Positions 21,222-57,264 of a stretch of DNA of 64,000 nt are shown here, piece after piece. This DNA comes from a virus. The notes beneath the pieces were generated by a model. The model was not told where the DNA came from. It worked only from the letters and a program-made list of their open reading frames with translations, and did not search any database. Every line of letters starts with the position of its first letter. Position 1 is the stretch's first letter. The position numbers and the translations under genes were made by a program. Location of the stretch: IMG/VR virus record IMGVR_UViG_3300044742_000102, one strand, 5' to 3'.

Positions 21222-21265
21222 CTAATCCTCATCGTACGGATGAACGATGACTTCAATCAATCGCA

Positions 21266-22920: not shown

Positions 22921-23061
22921 CTACAGCAATCCCTTCACACACAACACCAACGAGAACACCAGCCCAGCATTTCCCCACAGCGGTAAGCCATAGAGTATGT
23001 TCGTACTGATAAACCCCACAATCACTATGATCGAGATAATCGTGTACAGTGTAAGACTCAC
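22921..23061 (-). CDS. 46-aa two-TM micro-protein
   Basis: GTG start in a GTGA overlap. Translates as (M)SLTLYTIISIIVIVGFISTNILYGLPLWGNAGLVFSLVLCVKGLL. Confidence 0.4.
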   Translation of the reverse strand: MSLTLYTIISIIVIVGFISTNILYGLPLWGNAGLVFSLVLCVKGLL

Positions 23062-23654: not shown

Positions 23655-23832
23655 GGTCTATCACTTCGATCATGCTACGGTGATAACACGTGTACAGTGT
23701 CTTACCGAAGTTACCCTGATTGTACAGGATAAACTGTAGACACTGATTCACAGACACAAAGCACCTGTTCATCACGAATACAGATTCATCATCATGCCAC
23801 AAACGAACATCATACATGTTGGACTCCTTCAT
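23602..23832 (-). CDS. hypothetical early protein
   Basis: 76-aa ORF. Confidence 0.45.
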   Translation of the reverse strand: MKESNMYDVRLWHDDESVFVMNRCFVSVNQCLQFILYNQGNFGKTLYTCYHRSMIEVIDHANELVVGIVYNHDESW

Positions 23833-24086
23833 CGTGCCATTCCTCCCAATACATCAAACAGAACCAACACACGTTGCATGATAGCATCATACTGCTCCAC
23901 GCTATCAGTATTATCGAATACTGAATCACGTGTACGTATGAATGTAATCGCATCACTCCCTTCAATGGTAAACAAGTAGTGACCATTCTCGCTCACATCG
24001 AATGCGAGTTTGCCTTTCACCCATGTTGGATTCCATGTGTACAAGGTGATTTCATCATTGTTATTCATTCTACTCACCATCTTCAA
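23829..24086 (-). CDS. hypothetical early protein
   Basis: 85-aa ORF. Confidence 0.5.
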   Translation of the reverse strand: MKMVSRMNNNDEITLYTWNPTWVKGKLAFDVSENGHYLFTIEGSDAITFIRTRDSVFDNTDSVEQYDAIMQRVLVLFDVLGGMAR

Positions 24087-46265: not shown

Positions 46266-46291
46266 AGCCGTGGACATCACGGCTATGTTTT
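46266..46291. terminator. intrinsic terminator-like hairpin (A-run upstream, T-run downstream)
   Basis: AGCCGTG-gacat-CACGGCT, flanked by AAAAACAA and ATGTTTT. Confidence 0.55.
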
Positions 46292-46696: not shown

Positions 46697-46725
46697 TTGA
46701 CAAACACGTATCAATATGATACAAT
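46697..46725 (+). promoter_or_regulatory. sigma70-type promoter (TTGACA, 17-nt spacer, TACAAT) heading the tRNA island
   Basis: aCTTGACAAACacgtatcaatatgaTACAATgta. Confidence 0.75.
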
Positions 46726-46810
46726 GTATACAAGTTCATAAAACGCGGTCCTGAGCATGACCACTACGTTCCTCTCACTATCATACGGGGACATAAAAAC
46801 TGCTCAACGT

Positions 46811-46882
46811 GGGGGTTTAGTTTACTTGGGAAAACCATTGCTTTGCACGCAGTAGTACGGGGTCCGAATCCCCGAACCTCCA
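46811..46882 (+). tRNA. tRNA-Ala(TGC)
   Basis: Hand-folded. Acceptor GGGGGTT/AACCTCC, anticodon loop TTTGCAC, T arm CGGGG-TCCGAAT-CCCCG. Confidence 0.75.
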
Positions 46883-46980
46883 CCCGTGACTGGCTGACTC
46901 ACGTTAATAATCAGTTCCGTGACTTGGGGACACGTACCCATGCCCAACCGTTTGCTGGTGTCGGTGAATAACCAACACAC

Positions 46981-47061
46981 GTGTCTGATGCGGGTGGACC
47001 CGCAGGGTGACTGTAAATCATCTGCATTGTGACAATGGGAGTTCGATTCTCCCCGGACACA
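46981..47061 (+). tRNA. tRNA-Tyr(GTA), long variable arm
   Basis: Acceptor GTGTCTG/CGGACAC, loop CTGTAAA, T arm GGGAG-TTCGATT-CTCCC. Confidence 0.75.
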
Positions 47062-47066
47062 CCCAC

Positions 47067-47140
47067 GCATCCATAAGACAATGGAAGTCTAGCGGACTTT
47101 TAATCCGTGAGTTTAGGTTCGATCCCTGATGGATGTACCA
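47067..47140 (+). tRNA. tRNA-Lys(TTT), CCA encoded
   Basis: Acceptor GCATCCA/TGGATGT, loop CTTTTAA, T loop TTCGATC. Confidence 0.75.
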
Positions 47141-47141
47141 A

Positions 47142-47214
47142 GCCCGTGTATTTCGACTGGCAGAATGTCATCTCGACATGATGAAGGATAGAGGTTCGAA
47201 TCCTCTCACGGGCA
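47142..47214 (+). tRNA. tRNA-Val(GAC) with unusual C33
   Basis: Acceptor GCCCGTG/CACGGGC, anticodon stem TCATC/GATGA, loop TCGACAT, T arm AGAGG-TTCGAAT-CCTCT. Confidence 0.6.
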
Positions 47215-47216
47215 CC

Positions 47217-47287
47217 CAGCATGTAGCATATTGGAAATGCACTGGACTGTGAATCCAGCTATGTGGGTTCGATTCTCACCTTGCTGA
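47217..47287 (+). tRNA. tRNA-His(GTG)
   Basis: Acceptor CAGCATG/CTTGCTG (one T-T mismatch), loop CTGTGAA, T arm GTGGG-TTCGATT-CTCAC. Confidence 0.7.
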
Positions 47288-47291
47288 CCCT

Positions 47292-47366
47292 GCCCCATTA
47301 GCTTAACGGAAGAGCTTGATCGTTCTAAGGTCTAAGGTGTGGGTTCAAATCCTACATGGGGTGCCA
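47292..47366 (+). tRNA. tRNA-Arg(TCT), CCA encoded
   Basis: Acceptor GCCCCAT/ATGGGGT, loop GTTCTAA, T arm GTGGG-TTCAAAT-CCTAC. Confidence 0.7.
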
Positions 47367-47367
47367 C

Positions 47368-47396
47368 TTGACAAACAATGAAAGATGTGATATAAT
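47368..47396 (+). promoter_or_regulatory. perfect sigma70-consensus promoter (TTGACA, 17-nt spacer, TATAAT)
   Basis: aCTTGACAAACaatgaaagatgtgaTATAATgtgg, immediately after tRNA-Arg. Confidence 0.8.
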
Positions 47397-47493
47397 GTGG
47401 CTCACAGCATTGATACTCTGGTTGATGGTGTTTGGAGCTATTGTGTGGATGTTGTGGGAACTGTATCATCCAGACTGATAAGGATGTGGTATA

Positions 47494-47571
47494 ATGATTA
47501 TCTGGCCGGGTGGACTTGTTGGATTGATTCTTATCATATTGATTGTGCTGTTCCTCACAGGGAACTGCTAG
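47494..47571 (+). CDS. 25-aa hydrophobic micro-ORF
   Basis: AGGA 9 nt upstream of the ATG. Translates as MIIWPGGLVGLILIILIVLFLTGNC. Confidence 0.3.
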   Translation: MIIWPGGLVGLILIILIVLFLTGNC

Positions 47572-47576
47572 AAATA

Positions 47577-47592
47577 GGTTTTCACGAAAACC
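47577..47592. repeat. GTTTTC-NN-GAAAAC family palindrome
   Basis: GGTTTTCacGAAAACC, followed by CTAGAAAG and then the ATG at 47608. Confidence 0.75.
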
Positions 47593-47607
47593 TAGAAAGC
47601 CTGTAGT

Positions 47608-47823
47608 ATGCTACAAATAAACATCTCAGAGGATGCACTAGAATCTCTCCTGTTTGATCGTGATATGACAGGCAATGCTATACGTGATTTTGCCAAACTT
47701 GCTGAGATTCTGATTCCAGTGCTCAAACGGGTGGGTGATGCGTGGGATTTAAACTATGATGCAAACTACATTGAAGAGGAACTCGAAAAAGCCATTGATA
47801 TTATTGTGAATTGGTGCGGATAA
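47608..47823 (+). CDS. hypothetical protein
   Basis: 71-aa acidic ORF. Confidence 0.55.
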   Translation: MLQINISEDALESLLFDRDMTGNAIRDFAKLAEILIPVLKRVGDAWDLNYDANYIEEELEKAIDIIVNWCG

Positions 47824-48068
47824 TGCTGCGTGTAACGGTTGAACTGATTCCGGGTGGATACCTTAGTAATAAGCGAAACATACGTGAACTGGAAATCACC
47901 AACACATCTGTTTCAAGTATCGTTGGTCACCCATCTACATACAAGGTCACATCAAAGGGTGACTACATCGACACCATCGAGGATTGGGATAGCAATAGAC
48001 CAGTCGAGGAACTTGTAGCTGAGGCATTGTTTAGTCTGCGTGATAGACCTCTTAGAGATTATTACTAA
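47823..48068 (+). CDS. hypothetical protein
   Basis: TAATG coupling to the upstream gene. Translates as MLRVTVELIPGGYLSNKRNIRELEITN.... Confidence 0.5.
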   Translation: MLRVTVELIPGGYLSNKRNIRELEITNTSVSSIVGHPSTYKVTSKGDYIDTIEDWDSNRPVEELVAEALFSLRDRPLRDYY

Positions 48069-48072
48069 TAAA

Positions 48073-48147
48073 CGCTCTTGTGCCAGCCGGTAGTTGGCAG
48101 GAAGCTTATATCTTCTTCATGAGCAGGTTCAACTCCTGAAAGAGCGA
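48073..48147 (+). tRNA. tRNA-Ile(TAT)
   Basis: Acceptor CGCTCTT/AAGAGCG, D arm GCCA-gccggtagt-TGGC, loop CTTATAT. Confidence 0.65.
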
Positions 48148-48149
48148 CC

Positions 48150-48239
48150 GGGACTGTCTCAAATGCGGGAAGCCTAGTACCTACGATCTGACTGTACAGC
48201 AGAGAGCGGGGAAGTGCCAGCGTTAGGTTTGCGGTCCCT
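48150..48239 (+). other. 90-nt tRNA-sized structured spacer without a canonical T arm
   Basis: A 7-bp closing stem GGGACTG/CGGTCCC resembles an acceptor stem, but I could not build a T loop or a cloverleaf. Confidence 0.3.
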
Positions 48240-48242
48240 CAT

Positions 48243-48313
48243 GCCCGGTTAGCATAATGGTAAGGCAACAGTGTTACATACTGTGGATAGAGGTTCAATT
48301 CCTCTACGGGGCA
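48243..48313 (+). tRNA. tRNA-Val(TAC)
   Basis: Acceptor GCCCGGT/ACGGGGC (one mismatch), anticodon stem ACAGT/ACTGT, loop GTTACAT. Confidence 0.7.
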
Positions 48314-48384
48314 CAGGGCTATATCACCAGCCCTCTTAGGGATCGCACATGCGGAGCCAGTGCGTTATCAACGCTCCGCAACAT

Positions 48385-48455
48385 GCTCTGTTATGCTAGT
48401 GGAAGGCAAACATTCTTTCAAAGTGTTGGCACGGGTTCGATCCCCGTACAGAGTA
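48385..48455 (+). tRNA. tRNA-Glu(TTC)
   Basis: Acceptor GCTCTGT/ACAGAGT, loop CTTTCAA, T arm ACGGG-TTCGATC-CCCGT. Confidence 0.75.
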
Positions 48456-48499
48456 CCGCATGGTTGTAGGTGACTGCGCTATAGAGTGGAACCTATAGT

Positions 48500-48519
48500 A
48501 AGTTTCACGAATGAAACTT
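48500..48519. repeat. hairpin with AGTTTC/GAAACT arms (same family as the palindromes)
   Basis: AAGTTTCA-cgaa-TGAAACTT. Confidence 0.7.
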
Positions 48520-48528
48520 TCTTATCAT

Positions 48529-48601
48529 CTGGCATTAGGGAAGCGGTCATCCCCCCGCGTTTGGAATGCGGTAGCCGGTAGTTCGAATCTACCATGCCAG
48601 A
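48529..48601 (+). tRNA. tRNA-Pro(TGG)
   Basis: Acceptor CTGGCAT/ATGCCAG, loop TTTGGAA, T arm GGTAG-TTCGAAT-CTACC. Confidence 0.8.
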
Positions 48602-48605
48602 CCCT

Positions 48606-48681
48606 CGAACCATCTTCTAGTGGATCAGGAAGCCTGTCTCTCACACAGGCAACACGAGTTCAAATCTCGTTGGTTCGACCA
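48606..48681 (+). tRNA. tRNA-Glu(CTC), CCA encoded
   Basis: Acceptor CGAACCA/TGGTTCG, anticodon stem CCTGT/ACAGG, loop CTCTCAC. Confidence 0.75.
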
Positions 48682-48682
48682 A

Positions 48683-48756
48683 CTCCCTATAGTGAAGTGG
48701 CCTATCACGCGGCCCTGTCAAGGCTGAGAACACGGGTTCGAATCCCGTTGGGGGGA
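48683..48756 (+). tRNA. tRNA-Asp(GTC)
   Basis: Acceptor CTCCCTA/TGGGGGG (two G-U pairs), D arm GTGA..TCAC, loop CTGTCAA. Confidence 0.7.
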
Positions 48757-48897
48757 CTAACATGCGTAAGTGTGCAACTCCGAATGGTAAACGATCATCA
48801 CTGAATGAATATGCTACACATGCTCGTAGTGGTAGACTACAGATGAAGCAACAGCATTGGTCATCGGTACGTAGAATAACGAAAGACTGGTTGAAGC

Positions 48898-49137
48898 ATG
48901 AGAAAGCGTATTGGTAGCTACGAACTAGAAACGATGCGAAAATATAAAGGCCGTGCGTTTGCTATTACTAAGATCGTAGGTGAGCACAAAGAAACACGTG
49001 TACCGTGGAGATTCTGGATATGTTTCACCTATCTTGTAAAACGGCTAACATATCAGCATTCGCACCATACTTTCGAAAGCTATAAATGGCTGGCAATACC
49101 ATTTATAACAATTCAGTATACATACACTCCTTCATAG
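48898..49137 (+). CDS. hypothetical protein (doubtful)
   Basis: 79-aa ORF whose last 10 nt overlap tRNA-Phe. Confidence 0.35.
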   Translation: MRKRIGSYELETMRKYKGRAFAITKIVGEHKETRVPWRFWICFTYLVKRLTYQHSHHTFESYKWLAIPFITIQYTYTPS

Positions 49138-49198
49138 CTCAGAAGTAGAGCGTCCGGTTGAAGCCCGGTGTGGATCGGAGCGTTACCGGTTGAGGGAA
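49128..49198 (+). tRNA. tRNA-Phe(GAA) with non-canonical T loop
   Basis: Acceptor TCCTTCA/TGAGGGA, D arm AGCTCAGAAGTAGAGC, loop TTGAAGC, T arm ATCGG-AGCGTTA-CCGGT. Confidence 0.6.
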
Positions 49199-49202
49199 CC
49201 CT

Positions 49203-49277
49203 ATCCTCATAGTTCAAGGGATAGAACGAGGGCTTGCGAAGCCTTTGGTCGCAGTTCGAATCTGCGTGAGGATGCCA
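49203..49277 (+). tRNA. tRNA-Arg(GCG), CCA encoded
   Basis: Acceptor ATCCTCA/TGAGGAT, loop TTGCGAA, T arm CGCAG-TTCGAAT-CTGCG. Confidence 0.7.
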
Positions 49278-49278
49278 T

Positions 49279-49350
49279 GCCGCTATAACATAAAGGAGAG
49301 TGTTTCGGACTTCGAATCCGAGAGTCGTGGTTCGATTCCACGTAGCGGTA
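49279..49350 (+). tRNA. tRNA-Arg(TCG)
   Basis: Acceptor GCCGCTA/TAGCGGT, anticodon stem TCGGA/TCCGA, loop CTTCGAA. Confidence 0.75.
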
Positions 49351-49354
49351 CCTT

Positions 49355-49425
49355 ACCTTTGTGGTGTAATGGTAACACAACTGTTTTGTAATCAGTTACT
49401 GCGGGTTCGATTCCTGCCATTGGTG
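49355..49425 (+). tRNA. tRNA-Thr(TGT) with two T-T mismatches in the acceptor stem
   Basis: Acceptor ACCTTTG/CATTGGT, D arm GTGT-aatggta-ACAC, loop TTTGTAA. Confidence 0.6.
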
Positions 49426-49430
49426 CCCTT

Positions 49431-49455
49431 GCTAGTATCAGATACTCGTACTAGC
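49431..49455. repeat. hairpin following the CCTTGCTAG motif
   Basis: GCTAGTA...TACTAGC arms with an inner palindrome AGTATCaGATACT. Confidence 0.65.
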
Positions 49456-49622
49456 TCGTGAGTGTAAGAGTGTCCAGCCACTTGTCAATCATGACAGGTA
49501 AGGAGTACCCCACACGACAGTCTCACGAAGATCATAGATCGACTGTCTCACTCCACAACAGACTGATCCACCATATGTGGAAACAGATCATTGACCGTTA
49601 GACCAACTAGCGGTCATTGCTT

Positions 49623-49696
49623 GCGGGATTGAGTTACCGGTAAACTGCGACTCTTCCAAAGTTGATAAGCCGGTTCAATTCCGGCATCCCGCACCA
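49623..49696 (+). tRNA. tRNA-Gly(TCC), CCA encoded
   Basis: Acceptor GCGGGAT/ATCCCGC, loop CTTCCAA, T arm GCCGG-TTCAATT-CCGGC. Confidence 0.8.
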
Positions 49697-49712
49697 TTAG
49701 AATGGAGTCCTG

Positions 49713-50036
49713 ATGGACATTGACACTACATTAATCATACAGGGTGGAGTATTCGGTGCCGTTGGTGTACTCACATCAGTCAAGCTATTGACTAGCTATT
49801 TCAAGAAGTTCTTTGATCTACGTGGCCGATGGGTCATGGGTATGACCCTGCTCTTGTCTGCATACGCGGTATCGACTGCGATACTATCAGTCTACTGGTC
49901 CATCGTAGGTCTCGTGTTCATGGGAGTATACCTAACCGTATTGGTGGCTACAACAGCAGATGCCTACTTTCAGCAAGAAGAAGCTACGCAGGTACAACGC
50001 GCTGCGGAGCATCCTGATAAGGTTCGTTTACGATAG
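49713..50036 (+). CDS. membrane protein, 3 TM segments (holin-like candidate)
   Basis: GGAG RBS. Hydrophobic stretches GGVFGAVGVLTSVKLL, MGMTLLLSAYAVSTAILSVYW and IVGLVFMGVYLTVLVA. Confidence 0.55.
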   Translation: MDIDTTLIIQGGVFGAVGVLTSVKLLTSYFKKFFDLRGRWVMGMTLLLSAYAVSTAILSVYWSIVGLVFMGVYLTVLVATTADAYFQQEEATQVQRAAEHPDKVRLR

Positions 50037-50106
50037 GCAGCAATAAGCTAGCGGTAAACTTCTACATTGCCAATGTAGACTCAGGAGTTCGATCCTCCTT
50101 TGCTGC
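50037..50106 (+). tRNA. tRNA-Gly(GCC)
   Basis: Acceptor GCAGCAA/TTGCTGC, anticodon stem CTACA/TGTAG, loop TTGCCAA. Confidence 0.75.
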
Positions 50107-50153
50107 ACTTTGCGGTTGATGGTAACGCGCAATCGCGGTGGAACCATCATCAT

Positions 50154-50234
50154 GTACTTGTGGTGGAATGGCATACACGATAGCCTTAGAAGCTATTCTC
50201 GCAAGGGGTGCAGGTTCGAATCCTGTCAGGTACA
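50154..50234 (+). tRNA. tRNA-Leu(TAG), long variable arm
   Basis: Acceptor GTACTTG/CAGGTAC, anticodon stem ATAGC/GCTAT, loop CTTAGAA. Confidence 0.75.
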
Positions 50235-50302
50235 CAAAGAGGTTGGTGGCAACGCTCACTAATATGTCTGTGAGTTACCCTCTCTAAAAACCACCCATCT
50301 AT

Positions 50303-50375
50303 GCGGGTATGGTGAAACGGCAAACACAACTGGTTTAAGCCCAGCACGCTACAGGTTCGAATCCTGTTACCCGTA
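50303..50375 (+). tRNA. 73-nt type-I tRNA carrying the Leu anticodon TAA (short variable loop)
   Basis: Acceptor GCGGGTA/TACCCGT, loop TTTAAGC, 5-nt variable loop ACGCT, T arm ACAGG-TTCGAAT-CCTGT, discriminator A73. Confidence 0.6.
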
Positions 50376-50380
50376 CCCAT

Positions 50381-50461
50381 GTGCGATTGGTGGAATGGCA
50401 TACACGCAAGTCTGAGAGGCTTGTCTCGCAAGAGATGGGAGTTCGAGTCTCCTGTCGCACA
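50381..50461 (+). tRNA. tRNA-Leu(GAG), long variable arm
   Basis: Acceptor GTGCGAT/GTCGCAC, loop CTGAGAG, T arm GGGAG-TTCGAGT-CTCCT. Confidence 0.75.
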
Positions 50462-50480
50462 CTAGTTAGAAAGTAGCAAT

Positions 50481-50687
50481 ATGACATCAAGTATCGGTCG
50501 GATCGTACACTACGTAGACTATGATGGTCGGCACATTGCAGCAATGATTGTGCAGCTTGCTGATGAAGATACGAATGAGGAACGACTCGCTATTTTTGAT
50601 CCATACTACAACACAACAATGTGGAGAGATGCATCACAAGATGCAGAATGTGGACTAACAACATGGCATGAGCCAGAAAGGGTATAA
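50481..50687 (+). CDS. hypothetical protein
   Basis: 68 aa, preceded by the TAGAAAGTAG leader. Confidence 0.5.
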   Translation: MTSSIGRIVHYVDYDGRHIAAMIVQLADEDTNEERLAIFDPYYNTTMWRDASQDAECGLTTWHEPERV

Positions 50688-50689
50688 CA

Positions 50690-50884
50690 ATGCACATGAC
50701 ATCAGCGCAGGCAGAAGCAATCGTAGAAGCGTTTCGTGTAGCAGCGATCACAACACTGACACACCTAACTCGTAGGTTCCTCTTCACTGTAGTCAGTACA
50801 CCGGGTGTGACATGGAACACCGCACAGGCTGCATACCTGAATGCACGAGACATTCACGCAGCGGAGCCGTTCGTAGAAACATAA
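50690..50884 (+). CDS. hypothetical protein
   Basis: 64-aa ORF. Confidence 0.45.
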   Translation: MHMTSAQAEAIVEAFRVAAITTLTHLTRRFLFTVVSTPGVTWNTAQAAYLNARDIHAAEPFVET

Positions 50885-50887
50885 AAT

Positions 50888-50968
50888 GGAAGGTTGGCAG
50901 AGTGGTAATGCAGCGGTTTGCTAAACCGTAGGGGGCAACCTCCAGGGGTTCGATTCCTCTACTTTCCG
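50888..50968 (+). tRNA. tRNA-Ser(GCT), long variable arm
   Basis: Acceptor GGAAGGT/ACTTTCC, loop TTGCTAA, variable arm AGGGGGCAACCTCC. Confidence 0.75.
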
Positions 50969-51003
50969 CTTGGTCCTGAGCAGGACTATAAAAGGCTCAA
51001 CAT

Positions 51004-51075
51004 GTCTCCGTAGCACAATGGTACTGCTACTGGCTCTTACCCAGCAGAATACTGGTTCGAATCCAGTCGGGGACA
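51004..51075 (+). tRNA. tRNA-Lys(CTT)
   Basis: Acceptor GTCTCCG/CGGGGAC, loop CTCTTAC, T arm ACTGG-TTCGAAT-CCAGT. Confidence 0.7.
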
Positions 51076-51098
51076 CCCCCCTAGAAAGTAGTTACACC

Positions 51099-51404
51099 AT
51101 GCAATCAGGCATTGACTACATTCAGGAACAGATCGAAAGAGGGAATACAGGCAACTTTGCGAGTAATCAATTTACGAATGAAGAAGCCCTACAATTCTTT
51201 CAAACCATCGAACAGCTAGGTGGTCATGTGACTATACCAGAAATATATAAAGATCACGATGGACCCGGTGAAGACTATGCTGACTCGTGTGAGGTACACC
51301 TGTATACGGACACATTGTTTGGTGAAATTATGATTACAATAATCCCACACAGCCCAGATGATATGGAGTTCAAGACCGATCTTGTCTGGTTGTGGTGGGA
51401 CTAA
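51099..51404 (+). CDS. hypothetical acidic protein
   Basis: I chose the ATG at 51099, after the TAGAAAGTAG leader. The upstream part of the tracked ORF covers two tRNAs. Confidence 0.5.
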   Translation: MQSGIDYIQEQIERGNTGNFASNQFTNEEALQFFQTIEQLGGHVTIPEIYKDHDGPGEDYADSCEVHLYTDTLFGEIMITIIPHSPDDMEFKTDLVWLWWD

Positions 51405-51407
51405 TAT

Positions 51408-51481
51408 TCCAGAGTCTTCTAAGGGTAGGAAGGCTGTCTTTGAAACAGCTAATGAATGTTCGAATCATTCCTTTGGAACCA
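51408..51481 (+). tRNA. tRNA-Gln(TTG), CCA encoded
   Basis: Acceptor TCCAGAG/CTTTGGA (U1-A72), anticodon stem GCTGT/ACAGC, loop CTTTGAA. Confidence 0.8.
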
Positions 51482-51499
51482 TCCTAGAAAGAGATATAC

Positions 51500-51799
51500 A
51501 TGGTTAATTATACTGGTGTGTGGTTGTGTAACGATGCCGGTGACTGTTCAATGGTGGAGCGTAGCGATGATAATTGCTATGTTGCTGTAGAAGTTGGTGT
51601 TGTTAAGGATACTATGCCATACTACAACAGCGTGAAGCTCATTGTAGCATTGCCAAATGTCCTTGCTGCATCTCCTACGTTTATGAATATATTTCAACAA
51701 GAGTTTGTAGAAGCAACGGCATACCTACACCGCTATGCTGTAGAAAAGCTAGAAAGTAGTTCTCATGCAGATCATACCGCTTCTTCGAACATTTCTTGA
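51500..51799 (+). CDS. hypothetical protein
   Basis: 99 aa, preceded by the CCTAGAAAG leader. Confidence 0.5.
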   Translation: MVNYTGVWLCNDAGDCSMVERSDDNCYVAVEVGVVKDTMPYYNSVKLIVALPNVLAASPTFMNIFQQEFVEATAYLHRYAVEKLESSSHADHTASSNIS

Positions 51800-51824
51800 C
51801 AACAACAGAGATGTGAAGGTTGTT

Positions 51825-52181
51825 ATGTTCGAGATGGGTACACGCGAGTACGAGATATTCGAAGAGGAATTGGATAGTATGCGCTACTACCCACGCACGC
51901 ATGAACAATTATCATTTTGTGGAGTACCTATTGTGCGTACGGGTGATCCCGGTATATGTGCAAAAATTCAACAGTGGATCATTATTTCGGACTCTGCTAA
52001 TGGTAGGCAAGCTGTCTCTGAAACAGCCAATCTAGGTCCGACTCCTAGGTCCGAAGCAGACCAGTTTATTATAGATCACTATAGTAAGCTGGAGTGTAGA
52101 ACAAACTATGGTGAAACTCGTGGTCGTAGAGATATTCGTACCTACAACCATTGGGACTATGCAGACTCAATTGGGGAGTAA
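51825..52181 (+). CDS. hypothetical ORF that reads through tRNA-Gln(CTG) (3' extent doubtful)
   Basis: MFEMGTREYEIFEEELD.... The frame stays open across the tRNA at 51986-52056 and stops inside the next tRNA. Confidence 0.35.
   Translation: MFEMGTREYEIFEEELDSMRYYPRTHEQLSFCGVPIVRTGDPGICAKIQQWIIISDSANGRQAVSETANLGPTPRSEADQFIIDHYSKLECRTNYGETRGRRDIRTYNHWDYADSIGE
51986..52056 (+). tRNA. tRNA-Gln(CTG)
   Basis: Acceptor TTCGGAC/GTCCGAA, anticodon stem GCTGT/ACAGC, loop CTCTGAA, T arm CTAGG-TCCGACT-CCTAG. A paralogue of the tRNA at 51408. Confidence 0.7.
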
Positions 52182-52244
52182 CGCAAATGGTTCGCGGCAT
52201 CTCTGATAAGGATGTATTCGAAGGTCCGATTCCTTCATTCCCCA
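52173..52244 (+). tRNA. tRNA-Ile(GAT)
   Basis: Acceptor GGGGAGT/ATTCCCC, loop CTGATAA, T arm GAAGG-TCCGATT-CCTTC. Confidence 0.7.
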
Positions 52245-52251
52245 CCGGTTT

Positions 52252-52292
52252 GGCAGTATTACCTCTAGTTAGCTTTTCTAGTGAAAACTGCC
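52252..52292. repeat. hairpin GGCAGT...ACTGCC enclosing TTTTC-tagt-GAAAA
   Basis: 6-bp outer arms with an inner motif of the palindrome family. Confidence 0.6.
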
Positions 52293-52297
52293 TATAT

Positions 52298-52368
52298 TCC
52301 CCGGTCGTATAAAGATATTACGCGACTCTGTTAAAGTCATTATAGAGGTTTGATTCCTCTCTGGGGAG
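52298..52368 (+). tRNA. tRNA-Asn(GTT)
   Basis: Acceptor TCCCCGG/CTGGGGA, loop CTGTTAA, T arm AGAGG-TTTGATT-CCTCT. Confidence 0.7.
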
Positions 52369-52370
52369 CC

Positions 52371-52433
52371 TTGCTAGGTTGTAGTGTCATGTAAAATGTG
52401 GGTCATCGGCACACACCCCACATTACCTAGCAA
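52371..52433. repeat. long two-tier hairpin following CCTTGCTAG
   Basis: Outer arms TTGCTAGGT/ACCTAGCAA (9 bp) and inner arms AATGTGGG/CCCACATT (8 bp). Confidence 0.75.
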
Positions 52434-52436
52434 TAT

Positions 52437-52509
52437 GTCACACTAATTCATCTGGTAGAATGCGTTCTTGGTAAGAACGATGTACTGAGTTCAAGTCTCA
52501 GGTGTGGCT
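52437..52509 (+). tRNA. tRNA-Thr(GGT)
   Basis: Acceptor GTCACAC/GTGTGGC, anticodon stem CGTTC/GAACG, loop TTGGTAA. Confidence 0.8.
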
Positions 52510-52518
52510 CCGCGATCA

Positions 52519-52572
52519 TGGGGAACCAAGTGGCTAGGATATCATAGGTAGATGCGAGTTCTACTTCCCTAT
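52519..52572 (+). other. 54-nt mini-helix / D-arm-less tRNA-like element
   Basis: Acceptor-like TGGGGAA/TTCCCTA plus a T-arm-like GTAGA-tgcgagt-TCTAC. Too short for a cloverleaf. Confidence 0.3.
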
Positions 52573-52583
52573 GGTGCGTGCTT

Positions 52584-52654
52584 GTCGTTGTAGTTTAGTG
52601 GAAGAACAAGTGTTTCGTAAACACTGAGCAGCAGTTCGAATCTGCTCTTCGGCT
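52584..52654 (+). tRNA. tRNA-Thr(CGT) with two T-T mismatches in the acceptor stem
   Basis: Acceptor GTCGTTG/CTTCGGC, anticodon stem AGTGT/ACACT, loop TTCGTAA. Confidence 0.6.
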
Positions 52655-52694
52655 CATGTAGTGAGTCGGATTTATTCGGCTCTTAGGAGGTTAC

Positions 52695-52955
52695 GTGGAT
52701 ATTCAGTCATTGCTTGGTAGAATGGGTGCTGGTGGTGGACAAGCTGGTGGTGGTATGCCACCCGGAATGGGTGGTGGTGGACAGGGTATGGAAGCTATCA
52801 TGCCATTCCTGATGATGCTACTAAAGCAGATGTTAGGACAGAGTGGTGCTATGCCACAGGGGCAGGCAGGACCACCGGGTATGGGTGGTGGAATGCCCTT
52901 CGCTAGTGCCCTAGGTGCTCAGGGTGGACAAGGTATGCCACCGGGAATGATGTAA
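52695..52955 (+). CDS. Gly/Met/Pro/Gln-rich low-complexity protein (GGM-repeat-like)
   Basis: AGGAGG RBS, 5 nt, then GTG. Contains MPPGMGGGGQGM, GPPGMGGGMPF and GGQGMPPGMM. Confidence 0.55.
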   Translation: MDIQSLLGRMGAGGGQAGGGMPPGMGGGGQGMEAIMPFLMMLLKQMLGQSGAMPQGQAGPPGMGGGMPFASALGAQGGQGMPPGMM

Positions 52956-52979
52956 TACACGGGGCTACGGCCCCAACAT

Positions 52980-53050
52980 ATGCCATTCGTATAACGGAAG
53001 TACAACTGATTCCAAACCAGTTAGCGCGGGTTCGACTCCTGCATGGTGTG
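52980..53050 (+). tRNA. tRNA-Trp(CCA)
   Basis: Acceptor ATGCCAT/ATGGTGT (two G-U pairs), loop TTCCAAA, T arm GCGGG-TTCGACT-CCTGC. Confidence 0.65.
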
Positions 53051-53076
53051 CCGTGGGTCCAGCCTAGGAATCTTTA

Positions 53077-53097
53077 GTGACTAGCAAAGCTAGTCAC
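53077..53097. repeat. perfect 9-bp-stem hairpin
   Basis: GTGACTAGC-aaa-GCTAGTCAC. Confidence 0.8.
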
Positions 53098-53099
53098 GC

Positions 53100-53120
53100 G
53101 GAGTCAGCCTTGCTGACTCC
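53100..53120. repeat. perfect 9-bp-stem hairpin
   Basis: GGAGTCAGC-ctt-GCTGACTCC, 2 nt after the previous hairpin. Confidence 0.8.
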
Positions 53121-53233
53121 TATGAAAGCGAACGCACTACTCTTCGTAGTAGGTGCCCCGACAGGTTCCAGTGATGAGTTGGGTGGCCGGAACAGTGCGA
53201 TATAACCACAACCAAAAAGGCATCGCACAACAT

Positions 53234-53315
53234 GGAAGAGCTAACGTTGGAGAGTGTAGCTGCCTTGAACGCAGTAGGGCTAAATGCCCAGCGGGTTCGA
53301 ATCCTGTCTCTTCCG
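53234..53315 (+). tRNA. tRNA-Ser(TGA), long variable arm
   Basis: Acceptor GGAAGAG/CTCTTCC, loop CTTGAAC, variable arm AGGGCTAAATGCCCA. Confidence 0.7.
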
Positions 53316-53452
53316 CTGTGTGCAACAAGAGGATAATGTGATTCCGTGGGCATGTACCACAGCAGGGAATCGGTACTCGGCCTCAGTGTACCTGCACCGC
53401 TACAACTGAATATGCTTGTCAGCCTGATGACACCTTGGTCGCGCTCGGTAGG

Positions 53453-53468
53453 AGTTTTCTCGAAAACT
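53453..53468. repeat. GTTTTC-NN-GAAAAC family palindrome
   Basis: AGTTTTCtcGAAAACT, overlapping a second palindrome ACTTCGAAGT (53466-53475). Confidence 0.7.
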
Positions 53469-53495
53469 TCGAAGTCACAGCCCTTCTGGCAACGA

Positions 53496-53618
53496 TGAAC
53501 CGAAGCACGTACGCTGTCAGACCGGCCAGTCAACAGCTATAGGCACGTGTCGGTAGAGCACACTACTGCCCACTGATTGTGAAATTGTGGGTTGCAGGTT
53601 CGAATCCTGTCCGGTTCT
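53496..53618 (+). other. atypical tRNA-like element / possible pseudo-tRNA
   Basis: Canonical T arm GCAGG-TTCGAAT-CCTGT (53594-53610) and a D-loop-like TCGGTAGAGCAC. The only acceptor partner (GAACCGA/CCGGTTC) lies about 120 nt away, across an inserted hairpin (CACGT...ACGTG). No 7-nt anticodon loop can be formed. Confidence 0.3.
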
Positions 53619-53623
53619 TTCGT

Positions 53624-53694
53624 GGCTCATTGATCGAGCAGTTAGATAGCTGTCTGCAAAACAGTGTACACTGGTGCAAATCCAGTATGAGCCT
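53624..53694 (+). tRNA. tRNA-Cys(GCA)
   Basis: Acceptor GGCTCAT/ATGAGCC, loop CTGCAAA, T arm ACTGG-TGCAAAT-CCAGT. Confidence 0.75.
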
Positions 53695-53696
53695 CC

Positions 53697-53716
53697 GGGG
53701 TTTTCTAGAAAACCCC
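53697..53716. repeat. GC-clamped GTTTTC-TA-GAAAAC palindrome
   Basis: GGGGTTTTCTAGAAAACCCC, a perfect 20-mer between tRNA-Cys and the next tRNA. Confidence 0.85.
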
Positions 53717-53722
53717 TTCCTT

Positions 53723-53796
53723 ATCCACGTATGCTAATTGGCAAAGCAAATAGTTTCAAAAACTGTTGAATGCGAGTTCGAATCTCGCGGTGGATA
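53723..53796 (+). tRNA. 74-nt type-I tRNA carrying the Leu anticodon CAA (short variable loop)
   Basis: Acceptor ATCCACG/GGTGGAT (6 of 7 pairs), D arm TGCT..AGCA, loop TTCAAAA, variable loop TGAAT, T arm GCGAG-TTCGAAT-CTCGC, discriminator A73. Confidence 0.6.
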
Positions 53797-53799
53797 CAT

Positions 53800-53875
53800 T
53801 GCGGTGTAGAGAAGTAGTCATCTCGCTTGGCTCATAACCAAGAAAACGTTGGTGCAAACCCAACCACCGCTACCA
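53800..53875 (+). tRNA. tRNA-Met(CAT) with a T1xT72 mismatch, CCA encoded (initiator-like or Ile2 possible)
   Basis: Acceptor TGCGGTG/CACCGCT, anticodon stem CTTGG/CCAAG, loop CTCATAA, T arm GTTGG-TGCAAAC-CCAAC. Confidence 0.65.
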
Positions 53876-53876
53876 T

Positions 53877-53948
53877 GTCTATAGAGCCAAACGGTGAGGC
53901 CGATGTTTCATACGCATCTTACACTCAGTTCGACTCTGAGTATAGACA
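53877..53948 (+). tRNA. tRNA-Met(CAT) (elongator or Ile2 type)
   Basis: Acceptor GTCTATA/TATAGAC, anticodon stem GATGT/GCATC, loop TTCATAC, T arm CTCAG-TTCGACT-CTGAG. Confidence 0.7.
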
Positions 53949-54095
53949 CCTAAGAGGGAGAGCCAGAACACCACTAGTCATAAGACTCACATTTGTTGTA
54001 GGGAAGCATCTGGCTTGCCCCTCTTATACGCTCGTAGTATTCACTACGGGCTTATTTGCGTTCCCGTAGCGTGCAAGCGCAACGAAAGGCATGAC

Positions 54096-55698: not shown

Positions 55699-57264
55699 AT
55701 GGCACAATTGATTCTTCCTGATAACCCGATAACACTGCGCGACAGAGCAAAGCTCACGGTGCTGTTACGGGACTATCCACAATATAGAGATGGAGTACGT
55801 GAGCGTTGTAAGAACGATCCGATATTCTTTATTAATCTCTTTGGCTTTACATTTGATCCCAGAGAAGGAGCACCACACCCCGATCTTCCTTTCCTTATGA
55901 CAGACAACCGACAGTATCAGATGGAAGTTATCGAGTGGTTCACAAGTCTCCTAGACAATCAAGAAGATGGACTCTTAGAGAAGTCACGCGAGATGGGAGC
56001 TACATGGCTCTTTGTCGCGTGGCTTTGTCATAACTTCCTCTTTCGCAAAGGTTTCCAAGCACTCGTTGGCTCCCGTAAGGAAGACCTCGTAGACAACTGG
56101 ACCCTTGATAGTCACTTTGGTAAGATCGCATACTTCCTCGAACACCTACCACGCTGGTTATTACCCAAGGGATACAACCCCGGCCAGCACCGTATGAAGC
56201 TCAAAGTAGTTAACCCGGAGAATGGCAATGTTATTATTGGTGAATCTAGTAATCCAAATTTCTCCAGACAGGGCCGATATACAGTCATTGTCATGGATGA
56301 AGCTGCCTTCTGGGACGACTTTGAACAGGCTTTTCGAGCTACTACACAGTCTACTCCCACCCGTATCCTCATCTCCACTGTCAACGGACCACCTGAGCAG
56401 AATGGATTTGCCAAGGAACGATTTAGTGGAAGACATAGAATCTTTACCCTACATTTTACACGAGATTCTGCCAAGAATGCAGAATGGGAGCGCACACAAC
56501 GCTCTCGTATGACCAAAGAGGATGCGGCACAAGAGCTTGATATCGACTATCATCGCTCTGGTCGTGGCCTAGTCTATCCCGACTTTGTACACACAAAGCA
56601 GGGACTCTATCCGTGGGAACCACGTTGGCATCTCTTTGTGGCATGGGACTTTGGTATTCATGATGACACAGCCCTGATATGGATTGCACGTAATGCAACC
56701 ACGGGCAAGACACGTATCGTGGACTGCTATAGCAATCGAGACAAGGCTATTGACTTCTATGTACCCTTTATATTAGGTTCATTCCCAGATGATAATACAC
56801 ACGACTATACGGAACTCGACAAGATCATTATTGCCGATCATGCCCATTTCCCTAGAGCTATGCATTATGGAGACCCGGATGTATACAAGCGTTCGGTAGC
56901 CTCTGGTACCTCTGCCTATCATGTACTGGCCGGTCACAATATTATTATTCAGACCAACCAGAAGGATAATGACTTTGCTGAACGCAAGCGCAAGACAGAG
57001 CTAGGCATTCGTAACATCGAAGGCATCAACATGCCCAACTGTGTCGAATTCTATAACGCACTATCTAACGCACGCTTCCCACAGCGCAACCCTACATCAC
57101 AGTCAACCAATGAGAAGATCAAGCCAATTCATGATGGCACAAGCCACTATCGGTCAGCACTTGAATACTATTTTGTCAACGAGCCTCTCTTTGCGATCAT
57201 GGAACGACCAGAACCAGAGAGACTAAAAAGAGCGTACGATGACATTGTAGCGCACCGGAGGTAA
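55699..57264 (+). CDS. terL: terminase large subunit
   Basis: ATPase motifs KSREMGATW (Walker A-like) and VIVMDEAAF (Walker B). 521 aa, immediately upstream of the portal gene. Confidence 0.85.
   Translation: MAQLILPDNPITLRDRAKLTVLLRDYPQYRDGVRERCKNDPIFFINLFGFTFDPREGAPHPDLPFLMTDNRQYQMEVIEWFTSLLDNQEDGLLEKSREMGATWLFVAWLCHNFLFRKGFQALVGSRKEDLVDNWTLDSHFGKIAYFLEHLPRWLLPKGYNPGQHRMKLKVVNPENGNVIIGESSNPNFSRQGRYTVIVMDEAAFWDDFEQAFRATTQSTPTRILISTVNGPPEQNGFAKERFSGRHRIFTLHFTRDSAKNAEWERTQRSRMTKEDAAQELDIDYHRSGRGLVYPDFVHTKQGLYPWEPRWHLFVAWDFGIHDDTALIWIARNATTGKTRIVDCYSNRDKAIDFYVPFILGSFPDDNTHDYTELDKIIIADHAHFPRAMHYGDPDVYKRSVASGTSAYHVLAGHNIIIQTNQKDNDFAERKRKTELGIRNIEGINMPNCVEFYNALSNARFPQRNPTSQSTNEKIKPIHDGTSHYRSALEYYFVNEPLFAIMERPEPERLKRAYDDIVAHRR

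Follow-up and report, generated by a model that had tools for sequence, protein, structure and literature searches.

What does a phage gain from a set of tRNA genes that reaches every amino acid? The question is raised by positions 46811–53948 of the 64,000-nucleotide stretch of viral DNA analyzed here (the window; IMG/VR record IMGVR_UViG_3300044742_000102), in which the initial annotation had folded 35 cloverleaves by hand.

Gene content of the tRNA island

The ARAGORN scan proposed at the time, run at default settings, called 33 tRNA genes, every one on the + strand and inside the island. The Rfam model RF00005 supplied two more, Phe-GAA and Ile-GAT, which ARAGORN also recovered once its threshold was relaxed. 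The resulting 35 genes, with 34 distinct anticodons, are the same 35 that had been folded by hand, and their anticodons agree exactly with the earlier list. As an internal control, the default scan found no tRNA genes in the remaining ~57 kb of the window; the tRNA and tmRNA scan reported no tmRNA within the window. Rejection of most genes by covariance models had been named as grounds for abandoning the claim; instead, 32 of the 35 reached the RF00005 gathering score. The three below it (Ile-TAT, Gln-CTG, and Ser-TGA) were all accepted by ARAGORN, and their cloverleaves are maintained via compensatory changes in related phages. The 35-tRNA block is a real, evolutionarily conserved phage feature. 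The genes are listed below; ARAGORN called all of them at default settings unless stated, and bits are Rfam scores.

46811–46882, +, tRNA-Ala(TGC), G3:U70, CCC next; 52.1 bits
46981–47061, +, tRNA-Tyr(GTA), class II (bacterial type), long D stem; 29.4 bits
47067–47137, +, tRNA-Lys(TTT), CCA encoded; 58.1 bits
47142–47214, +, tRNA-Val(GAC), anticodon loop C33 replacing U33; 52.3 bits
47217–47287, +, tRNA-His(GTG), no G-1, C1-G72, A73; 62.5 bits
47292–47363, +, tRNA-Arg(TCT), CCA encoded; 50 bits
48073–48147, +, tRNA-Ile(TAT), noncanonical; tRNA-Sec model only, 24.2 bits
48243–48313, +, tRNA-Val(TAC); 53.8 bits
48385–48455, +, tRNA-Glu(TTC); 56.1 bits
48529–48601, +, tRNA-Pro(TGG); 56.6 bits
48606–48678, +, tRNA-Glu(CTC), CCA encoded; 56.3 bits
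48683–48756, +, tRNA-Asp(GTC); 59.2 bits
49128–49198, +, tRNA-Phe(GAA), deviant T loop; 37.8 bits, relaxed ARAGORN
49203–49274, +, tRNA-Arg(GCG), CCA encoded; 60.4 bits
49279–49350, +, tRNA-Arg(TCG); 61.8 bits
49355–49425, +, tRNA-Thr(TGT); 54.4 bits
49623–49693, +, tRNA-Gly(TCC), CCA encoded; 57.8 bits
50037–50107, +, tRNA-Gly(GCC); 54.4 bits
50154–50234, +, tRNA-Leu(TAG), class II; 57.7 bits
50303–50375, +, tRNA-Leu(TAA), class I; 59.1 bits
50381–50461, +, tRNA-Leu(GAG), class II; 41.7 bits
50888–50968, +, tRNA-Ser(GCT), class II; 56.1 bits
51004–51075, +, tRNA-Lys(CTT); 60.4 bits
51408–51478, +, tRNA-Gln(TTG), CCA encoded; 55.2 bits
51986–52056, +, tRNA-Gln(CTG), T loop TCCGACT; no Rfam report, cloverleaf conserved in three lineages
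52173–52244, +, tRNA-Ile(GAT); 46.6 bits, relaxed ARAGORN
52298–52368, +, tRNA-Asn(GTT); 47.1 bits
52437–52509, +, tRNA-Thr(GGT); 48.9 bits
52584–52654, +, tRNA-Thr(CGT); 52.5 bits
52980–53050, +, tRNA-Trp(CCA); 45.2 bits
53234–53315, +, tRNA-Ser(TGA), class II, unusual D arm; tRNA-Sec model 32.6 bits, subthreshold
53624–53694, +, tRNA-Cys(GCA), T loop TGCAAAT; 53.2 bits
53723–53796, +, tRNA-Leu(CAA), class I; 50.7 bits
53800–53872, +, tRNA-Met(CAT), initiator-like (U1xU72 mismatch, A11:U24), CCA encoded; 58.9 bits
53877–53948, +, tRNA-Met(CAT), elongator-like (G1-C72); 47 bits

Judged by published identity rules (PMC9976931), bacterial identity elements are present where readable: G3:U70 in Ala, a class II Tyr, and A73, A15:U48, and G18G19 in Leu. 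The His gene of the window lacks G-1 and C73 and has C1-G72 and A73, which is atypical for bacteria, whereas its counterparts in two related lineages (L005 and L113) retain G-1 and C73; the T loop of Phe reads AGCGTTA where TTCGATT would stand. Because of these two genes, the all-20-amino-acid set announced earlier, which is borne out by the anticodons, is to be read as coverage by anticodon only. Positions 32/33 are unusual in Val-GAC, Arg-TCT, and Val-TAC, most anticodon loops of the island being canonical. Ile-TAT has a 6-bp D stem with a loop of 5 nt, an anticodon stem of 6 bp, and a T stem of 4 bp, and 14 of its 23 pairs are compensatory over three lineages. Its D arm resembles that of tRNA-Sec. 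The Cys-GCA T loop (with G55) is common to four lineages, and Gln-CTG, which Rfam did not match, sits within a called ORF (51765–52181).

The tRNA-Leu(UUR) genes are of class I and lack the long variable arm. In Leu-TAA the variable region is 5 nt long, the D arm is Leu-like, and A73 and A15:U48 are present; Leu-CAA is kept as class I in five lineages, with A73, A15:U48, and the D loop AATTGGCA, and 13 of its 17 pairs are compensatory.

Predicted expression and non-tRNA elements

The island is bracketed by predicted promoters and a predicted terminator. Consensus promoters had been placed at 46697 and 47368, and both stood up to inspection.

46697–46725, +, sigma-70-type promoter-like P1, TTGACA-17-TACAAT plus TG, 11/12 consensus positions, 85 nt before the first tRNA
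47368–47396, +, sigma-70-type promoter-like P2, TTGACA-17-TATAAT plus TG, perfect consensus (12/12)
54030–54051, +, terminator-like hairpin and T run, 80 nt past the last tRNA

The gap from discriminator to next gene is 2–5 nt at 13 of the 34 junctions, corresponding to the runs described earlier as spaced by 1–5 nt. The hand count of encoded CCA ends was likewise reproduced, at seven of 35 genes (Lys-TTT, Arg-TCT, Glu-CTC, Arg-GCG, Gly-TCC, Gln-TTG, and the first Met-CAT). Position -1 is U in 27 genes, C74 is present in all 35, and CC in 25. C74 was encoded in 96 of 96 genes, those of the relatives all having it too.

Host sigma-70 RNA polymerase would initiate at the two promoters and move to the right across the tRNA runs, small ORFs, and hairpin spacers as far as the terminator at ~54040, just before the structural genes. 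Host RNase P would cut the 5′ ends; the contacts of bacterial RNase P are known and fit U at -1 and encoded C74/C75. Trailers of 1–5 nt would be trimmed, the 3′ ends finished by the host CCA-adding enzyme, and the tRNAs charged by host synthetases. Among the 50 ORFs scanned, we found no CCA-adding enzyme, aminoacyl-tRNA synthetase, RNA ligase, or RNase, so the set relies on host enzymes and is not autonomous; the encoding of CCA by only seven genes and the deviant His and Phe genes are further signs of this.

Gene callers placed 10 ORFs within the island, in agreement with the initial count of about 10 interleaved small ORFs. One conserved ORF and three further elements are as follows.

47823–48068, +, 81-aa ORF directly 5′ of tRNA-Ile(TAT), kept in L005 (54% identity) and L113 (66%); no Pfam or PHROG match
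48148–48242, +, ~95-nt structured non-tRNA RNA between Ile-TAT and Val-TAC, conserved, 26 pairs of which 7 compensatory; no Rfam match
52245–52297, +, 53-nt hairpin spacer separating Ile-GAT from Asn, conserved, 87% identity with L005, inner stem compensatory
53547–53618, +, degenerate tRNA-like remnant, good T arm that matches that of Ser-TGA in L003, other stems poor

Conservation, codon usage, and role

The carrier is an uncultured phage of ~74 kb, as the hallmark genes in the window (TerL, portal, PolA, DnaB, class II RNR, and endonuclease VII) attest; among cultured phages, its closest TerL match reaches 37.5% identity. The tRNAs form a single 7.1-kb block with the replication module on one side and the structural module on the other. 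Five or more independent assemblies, drawn from several samples (74,245, 74,257, and 74,354 bp among them), carry the same genes, whose order is shared with four diverged lineages (L005, L003/L012, L111, and L113), among which TerL identity is only 53–67%; the G+C content of tRNA-bearing relatives is 46–54%. TerL relatives with ≤46% identity have no tRNA island beside TerL, and the island is therefore dispensable for the wider group. Across 28 window–L005 orthologue pairs (53–95% identity), of 570 predicted base pairs, 199 had compensatory changes on both sides, 40 were changed on one side only, and 6 were broken; the excess of compensatory over broken pairs demonstrates structural selection on the tRNA genes.

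The 34 anticodons suffice to decode all 61 sense codons, by a scheme of G34/U34 with C34 added in split boxes. GCA, CCA, TCA, ACA, and GTA each lead their codon family in one or more gene sets, and AUA, CUA, and AGA make up 19–22% of Ile, 22–25% of Leu, and 20–21% of Arg codons of the phage; island U34 tRNAs are exact cognates of all of these. This shows directly that the set matches the phage's own A-ending codon preference. Cognate-codon use is 0.61 in early and 0.60 in late gene sets, which gives no hint of the tRNAs being for one gene class in particular.

On balance, we favor the view that the ~74-kb phage, of lytic type, has inherited the island vertically as a working tRNA operon region. 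The benefit is most likely phage translation largely independent of host tRNA pool composition, the set probably keeping protein synthesis supplied with the tRNAs that the phage's own codons need. Counting against this are C33 in Val-GAC, the Phe T loop, the window His gene, Gln-CTG inside an ORF, the equal early and late cognate-codon use, and the more distant TerL relatives without an adjoining island. A decaying, horizontally acquired bacterial tRNA array, or a chimeric phage–bacterial assembly, could account for the remnant, the deviant His and Phe genes, and the tRNA-sized hairpin spacers, which could be decayed genes. It is nevertheless highly improbable: the independent assemblies agree in sequence and ~74.3-kb length, gene order is conserved across the diverged lineages, phage codon usage fits the set, and the free build-up of stem-breaking mutations expected under decay is contradicted by both the assembly and the window–L005 comparisons.

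The initial annotation proposed that, should host tRNAs be cleaved or depleted, the set may keep translation going, which is plausible. The idea derives from work in other phages (PMC10264068, PMC11555353); according to these studies and PMC12409363, tRNAs of phages can resist or offset tRNA-targeting defenses. That the set mainly replaces host tRNAs lost to anticodon nucleases, other tRNA-targeting immunity, or phage-induced shutoff seems possible but doubtful; such a role is compatible with codon supply. A set for every codon exceeds the need of codon compensation alone, and the unusual yet conserved tRNAs (class I Leu(UUR), Ile-UAU with its D stem, and Val-GAC, Arg-TCT, and Val-TAC at 32/33) fit the corollary that deviant structures would make phage tRNAs poor nuclease substrates. 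However, no nuclease, defense, or antidefense gene was recognized within the window, and the anticodon loops are mostly canonical. Translation in several hosts differing in tRNA pools and codon biases is a less likely purpose still: the presence of the phage in many independent samples, the G+C span of its relatives, and the wide host range of XacN1, linked to its high tRNA complement (PMC5852040), speak for it, but the same data fit codon supply equally well.

Comparison with known tRNA sets

A dense and complete phage tRNA island is unusual in its density, yet it is an already known kind of feature. The tRNA region of Escherichia phage T5 (NC_005859, at ~28–41 kb of the genome) likewise has short one-strand tRNA runs with small ORFs of no assigned function between them, several sigma-70 promoters, annotated stable non-tRNA RNAs adjoining tRNAs, as the 95-nt element does here, and an initiator-type tRNA-Met with a 1:72 mismatch. 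The two differ in number (T5, at 121.8 kb, has 25 annotated tRNA features, of which one is marked as a pseudogene, versus 35 in ~74 kb), in full CCA ends (22 of 22 T5 genes checked versus 7 of 35, with C74 universal here), and in Ile decoding, by Ile2(CAU) in T5 and Ile(UAU) here. HNH endonuclease genes lie inside the T5 region, but none was recognized in this island; the two islands share no sequence similarity, and the 95-nt RNA model had no match in T5. Besides T5, cluster C and M mycobacteriophages and XacN1 are known phages of this kind.

Complete sets had been called uncommon, and the survey of Morgado and Vicente 2019 (PMC6409571) lists eight viral clusters that carry all 20 isotypes; the phages it covers include ~72-kb Cellulophaga phages and mycobacteriophages of cluster C1. 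By its definition (at least 15 genes, at least 2 tRNA per kb), our island is a cluster and lies within its ranges (15–37 genes, 2–10 tRNA/kb, genomes ≥72 kb), close to the upper end in gene number and to the lower end in genome size; compared with those clusters, the phage represents an uncultured lineage. The C1 mycobacteriophage Momo has 34 tRNAs (PMC4472892). The Xanthomonas jumbo phage XacN1, with 56 tRNA genes, also covers all 20 amino acids (PMC5852040), but in 385 kb with the tRNAs in 66-kb terminal repeats, whereas the present genome is ~5 times smaller with a single block.

Mitochondrial class I tRNA-Leu(UUR), whose identity depends on A73 and D-loop elements (PMC9976931), similarly pairs a leucine anticodon with the lack of any long variable arm. 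Unlike it, the class I Leu tRNAs here are otherwise bacterial-type (full D loop with G18G19, A15:U48, T loop TTCGAAT) and share the island with class II Leu(TAG) and Leu(GAG).

Gene content and setting of the tRNA island

The tRNA island is confirmed as a real feature of the window. With default settings and the whole window as input, ARAGORN predicted 33 tRNA genes, all on the plus strand within 46810-53950, and none in the roughly 57 kb outside the island, which served as an internal control. The Rfam tRNA model RF00005 (gathering threshold 29 bits) added Phe-GAA (49128-49198, 37.8 bits) and Ile-GAT (52173-52244, 46.6 bits), both of which were also recovered by ARAGORN at relaxed thresholds. 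The union of 35 genes with 34 different anticodons reproduces exactly the list that the initial annotation had folded by hand, and the covariance model does not reject most of those genes, as 32 of the 35 reached the threshold with scores of 29.4-62.5 bits. The three below it, Ile-TAT, Ser-TGA and Gln-CTG, were all accepted by ARAGORN, and their cloverleaves are maintained via compensatory changes in related phages. Gln-CTG was not reported by Rfam at all; Ile-TAT matched the tRNA-Sec model (RF01852) alone and Ser-TGA matched the same model, with 24.2 and 32.6 bits and anticodons UAU and UGA, respectively, so that neither qualifies as tRNA-Sec, for which we required at least 47 bits and a UCA anticodon.

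The additional calls of relaxed ARAGORN were mostly antisense or in-ORF false positives, and we retained only Phe, Ile-GAT and a tRNA-like remnant at 53547-53618. The remnant, detected by relaxed ARAGORN only and with no Rfam match, has poor acceptor, D and anticodon stems and an intact T arm identical to that of Ser-UGA in the related lineage L003. A search for intron-containing tRNAs (ARAGORN -i) yielded zero extra genes. Suppressor or recoding tRNAs were rejected, the anticodons CTA, TCA and TTA being absent from the set and long ORFs being normal in code 11. The ARAGORN scan reported no tmRNA in the window, and the fetched flanks of the phage genome contained no further tRNA.

Viral tRNA gene clusters were defined by Morgado and Vicente (2019, PMC6409571) as at least 15 tRNA genes at a density of at least 2 per kb. 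The island, with 35 genes over 7,138 bp of a virus genome (4.9 per kb; 0.47 per kb over the whole genome of about 74 kb), falls under this definition. It lies inside the ranges of their survey (15-37 genes, 2-10 tRNA per kb, genomes of 72 to 617 kb, eight clusters with all 20 isotypes; PMC6409571), close to their extreme in the number of genes relative to genome size. Comparable sets are those of XacN1, with 56 tRNAs for all 20 amino acids (PMC5852040), and mycobacteriophage Momo, with 34 tRNAs (PMC4472892). As large phage tRNA arrays are already well documented, the main contribution of the island is one more case, an extreme one, from an uncultured lineage. Judged by layout, its nearest analogue is the tRNA region of T5, which combines runs of tRNAs with small ORFs, numerous promoters and stable RNAs annotated without a function. 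T5-like regions also have homing endonuclease genes between their tRNAs, but the island ORFs gave no HNH match.

The island is flanked by a leftward replication and nucleotide-metabolism module and a rightward structural module, and the following features mark its setting:

45567-45539, minus strand: perfect sigma-70 consensus promoter with extended -10, directed leftward into the replication module and divergent from the tRNA promoters
46266-46284: bidirectional terminator-like hairpin between the leftward promoter and the tRNA promoters
46697-46725: sigma-70 consensus promoter, 11/12 positions plus TG
47368-47396: sigma-70 consensus promoter, 12/12 positions plus TG
54030-54051: terminator-like hairpin that, with a promoter at 54121, divides the island from the structural genes
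55699-57264: T4-type large terminase (TerL)
57270-59387: portal

The consensus sites at 46697 and 47368 are the promoters that the initial annotation had placed at the head of the island. The small ORFs thought to be interleaved with the tRNA genes, about 10 in number, were likewise found, with 10 ORFs called within the island. The tight spacing of 1-5 nt read from the sequence corresponds to a gap of 2-5 nt between the discriminator and the next gene at 13 of the 34 junctions.

The window is phage DNA. Besides the terminase and portal, it encodes an NlpC/P60 plus SLT protein, replication genes (family A DNA polymerase, DnaB-like helicase, Toprim primase), nucleotide genes (class II ribonucleotide reductase, dCTP deaminase/dUTPase, a dNMP kinase-like protein) and two endonuclease VII genes. 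When the 9-kb island was compared by megablast with 50,697 phage records, no match emerged, and the best TerL match to cultured phages by tblastn was 37.5% identical. Identical TerL was present on contigs of several independent samples, and three independent assemblies were 74,245, 74,257 and 74,354 bp long; the repeated assembly at that length indicates a genome of about 74.3 kb and shows that the island did not arise from chimeric assembly. Between the assemblies, the tRNA genes do not differ except for one Val-GAC difference in assembly L002. Within the window, 14001-24000 is unlike the rest, with a strongly negative GC skew (-0.24 to -0.30), lower G+C (43-45%) and many small minus-strand ORFs.

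Covariation among relatives and departures from type

Related arrays were drawn from IMG/VR, JGI and Logan assemblies and fall into four diverged lineages (L003 and L012 form one, as do L113 and L114):

L005: TerL 53% identical to the window; 28 matching tRNAs in the same order
L003: TerL 67% identical; last 6 genes of the array
L012: TerL 62% identical; last 2 genes of the array
L111: neighbouring 183-aa protein 48% identical; last 13 genes of the array
L113, L114: conserved 81-aa ORF 66% identical; 5' half of the array

All relatives share the order of the array, apart from occasional gains and losses: Arg-TCT, Glu-CTC and Arg-GCG are missing from L113, in which Leu-TAA follows Glu-TTC, and neither Leu-TAA nor Leu-GAG occurs in L005. 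In relatives whose TerL identity is 46% or lower, many of them on contigs of about 45-49 kb, no tRNA block adjoins TerL, indicating that the island is an innovation of one sub-lineage. The G+C content of the relatives was uninformative, and exact-pattern scans of IMG/VR with a conserved 95-nt spacer element and the tRNA-Cys core returned already-known contigs only.

The tRNA orthologues are only 53-95% identical. Of the 570 base pairs predicted across the 28 window and L005 pairs, 199 have compensatory double changes, 40 are changed on one side and 6 are broken. The excess of compensatory over broken pairs is strong comparative evidence that the tRNAs are made and used.

Several of the genes depart from type, among them those for Leu(UUR), which are of class I:

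50303-50375: class I Leu-TAA
53723-53796: class I Leu-CAA
L003 1823-1896, L012 21-95, L005 7595-7667, L111 2436-2510 and L113 3869-3943: class I Leu(UUR) in relatives

In every lineage, the variable region of Leu-TAA and Leu-CAA is 4-6 nt and the long arm of bacterial class II tRNAs is absent; Leu-TAG and Leu-GAG of the island do possess it. We know of no precedent for class I tRNA-Leu(UUR) outside organelles. In the seven sequences from five lineages, 13 of the 17 predicted pairs have compensatory changes, the D loop AATTGGCAGA is conserved, the last variable position is T and A73 is present in all seven. The class I tRNAs thus carry the leucine identity set of the E. coli type (A73, A15:U48, G18G19), as described for bacterial tRNA-Leu (PMC9976931). 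Their leucylation is plausible from these sequences because E. coli LeuRS requires A73 and the tertiary core, the long arm being dispensable (PMC9976931).

A second structural departure is that of Ile-UAU (48073-48147 in the window; L005 666-738; L113 3453-3525), in which the D stem has 6 bp and its loop 5 nt, the anticodon stem 6 bp and the T stem 4 bp; these dimensions are kept in three lineages, where 14 of 23 pairs are compensatory. A long D stem, present in Ile-UAU and possibly in Ser-UGA and Tyr, is all that Ile-UAU and Ser-UGA would have in common with tRNA-Sec. The D arms of Ser-UGA (53234-53315) and Tyr (46981-47061) are likewise odd, and the general tRNA model gives both genes poor scores.

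The tRNA-His of the window (47217-47287) has C at -1, a C1-G72 pair and A73, and thus lacks the G-1 and C73 that are the chief histidine identity element in most bacteria (PMC9976931); the genes of L005 (114-184) and L113 (2811-2882) have the canonical G-1 and C73. The window gene is 53% identical to that of L005, and it starts with CAGCA where L005 and L113 start with GTGTT. The alphaproteobacterial type of tRNA-His without G-1 has U72 (PMC9976931) and was rejected for the window gene, which has G72 instead. The gene may have been replaced or remoulded, which makes its histidine acceptance doubtful. Smaller deviations are the T loop AGCGTTA of tRNA-Phe (49128-49198; A54/G55/T58), where the orthologues have TTCGATT; C33 in Val-GAC (47142-47214); and G55 in the T loops of Cys (53624-53694), where it is kept in four lineages, and of the initiator-like Met (53800-53872). 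The latter has a U1xU72 mismatch in four of the five lineages and the A11:U24 pair, and carries two G:C pairs at the foot of the anticodon stem, the bacterial initiator type having three consecutive ones.

The 3' ends show a pattern of their own. C74 is encoded in all 96 tRNA genes of the five lineages (window, L005, L003, L111, L113), and CC in about 70%. Among the 35 island genes, C74 is universal, C75 is present in 25 and the full CCA in seven, the number originally counted, A76 being no commoner than expected by chance; the full CCA is found in 22 of the 22 T5 genes checked. Whether a given gene has C only or CC is largely shared between the window and L005, and the -1 nucleotide is T/U in 27 of the 35 island genes. 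Bacterial RNase P prefers U(-1) and pairs C74 and C75 with its P15 loop, A76 being outside the pairing, and the U(-1) and the encoded C74 and C75 fit these preferences. The retention of C74 without A76 suggests selection for RNase P contacts and not for a complete 3' end. We propose that the host RNA polymerase would transcribe the island from the two consensus promoters (46697-46725 and 47368-47396) and that RNase P would release the 5' ends. In the tandem runs, the upstream tRNA would then retain just 2-5 surplus nucleotides, and trimming and a CCA-adding enzyme would produce the finished 3' end.

Decoding capacity and probable benefit to the phage

Coverage was computed from the anticodon list with standard wobble rules, G34 reading C/U, C34 reading G and U34 reading A/G, plus more in four-codon boxes. 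On these rules, the set covers all 61 sense codons. Neither A34-to-inosine editing nor lysidine is needed because no anticodon has A34, Arg CGN being read by GCG and TCG instead of ACG, and AUA is decoded by UAU instead of a lysidine-requiring CAU tRNA. The coverage of all 20 amino acids claimed in the initial annotation stands at the level of anticodon classes, of which there are 20, but is qualified by the window tRNA-His without G-1/C73 and by the deviant T loop of tRNA-Phe.

The codon usage of the phage fits the tRNA set. In about 13,800 codons, GCA, CCA, TCA, ACA and GTA each topped their codon family in one or more gene sets, and AUA accounted for 19-22% of the Ile codons, CUA for 22-25% of the Leu codons and AGA for 20-21% of the Arg codons; all eight are exact cognates of U34 tRNAs of the island. 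The suggested comparison of early and late genes brought out this fit but no difference between the gene sets, which are alike in their use of cognate codons (0.61 versus 0.60).

Pfam scans of 50 ORFs of the window, which covers all but about 10 kb of the genome, found no CCA-adding enzyme, aminoacyl-tRNA synthetase, RNA ligase, Thg1-like enzyme or RNase, and no tRNA repair or modification enzymes. Within these ORFs, the phage thus has no maturation or charging enzymes of its own that would make a self-sufficient translation module, and the host must mature and charge the phage tRNAs. Distant TerL relatives (L097, L098, L100 and L103), on contigs binned as Saccharibacteria, Moraniibacteriota, Patescibacteria and Peribacteria MAGs, were rejected as a guide to the host, being too distant (35-37% identity) and prone to binning error; they hint, weakly, at CPR bacteria as hosts of the wider phage group.

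The best-supported benefit of the island is a supply of tRNAs matched to the codon usage of the phage, which would free its translation to a large extent from the host pool. The role suggested in the initial annotation, surviving the cleavage or depletion of host tRNAs, would be compatible with such codon supply, and work on other phages (PMC10264068, PMC11555353, PMC12409363) supports it there; as a whole, the earlier interpretation is partly supported. A more novel reading is that the lineage may have evolved a structurally re-engineered, largely host-independent decoding set. It would take in the freedom from inosine editing and lysidine, the loss of the long variable arm from Leu(UUR), the tRNA-Sec-like long D stems of Ile-UAU (possibly also Ser-UGA and Tyr) and the keeping of C74 in every gene and A76 usually not; we consider this reading improbable. 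Were it true, with the departures hiding the phage tRNAs from host tRNA-targeting nucleases while leaving them chargeable, the island would be a natural orthogonalised tRNA complement, for which the conserved 95-nt spacer RNA could serve as an accessory factor.

The island is an extreme case in that each sense codon is matched by its anticodons and its gene order is stable across deep divergence. The five diverged copies of the array amount to a natural mutagenesis experiment on the tRNA features that a phage can alter yet keep, among them the loss of the Leu variable arm, the long D stem of Ile(UAU), G55 T loops and C74 without A76. With a host in hand, the system would be a compact model for codon supply versus defence evasion.

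Spacer RNAs and small ORFs

Conserved or hairpin-rich elements other than tRNAs lie between the genes:

48148-48242 (L005 739-833; L113 3526-3624): 95-nt element between Ile-UAU and Val-UAC
52245-52297 (L005 6414-6466): 53-nt hairpin in the Ile-GAT/Asn spacer
about 53513-53541 (L003 1507-1535; also L005): hairpin GCTGT-CAGACCGGCCAGTCA-ACAGC
52369-52436, 52510-52583 and 53051-53233: hairpin-rich inserts of 68, 74 and 183 nt

The 95-nt element, present in a single copy per genome, is more conserved than the flanking tRNAs and folds into a long, irregular hairpin; of its 26 pairs, 7 are compensatory in three lineages. It has zero Rfam matches, and a covariance model built from it found no more copies in the window, T5 or the tRNA-less relatives. 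Possible analogues are the stable RNAs of the T5 tRNA region. Between lineages, the 53-nt spacer is 87% identical and its inner stem shows compensatory change, and the stem of the GCTGT-CAGACCGGCCAGTCA-ACAGC hairpin covaries in L005. At the sites of the three inserts, the tRNAs of L005, L003 and L111 are just 1-4 nt apart; the inserts, with two perfect 9-bp hairpins in 53051-53140 (z = -4.5), may represent either tRNA genes in decay or small elements that were inserted.

Only two island ORFs, 47823-48068 and 48762-48917, are conserved in L005. The island ORFs had zero Pfam matches and one weak PHROGs match, to a family of unknown function. A called ORF of 138 aa (51765-52181) runs straight through tRNA-Gln(CTG) at 51986-52056; its homologue is absent from L005, and it is either a spurious call or a transcript with two uses. 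Several small island ORFs are preceded by the motif CTAGAAAG(T)AG, about 8-10 nt before their ATG, with exact copies at 51081, 51484 and 51749 and copies with one mismatch at 47568, 47592 and 50466. The sequence may be a translation-initiation, processing or regulatory motif, and with at most one mismatch it has 36 matches in the whole window against 19 expected.
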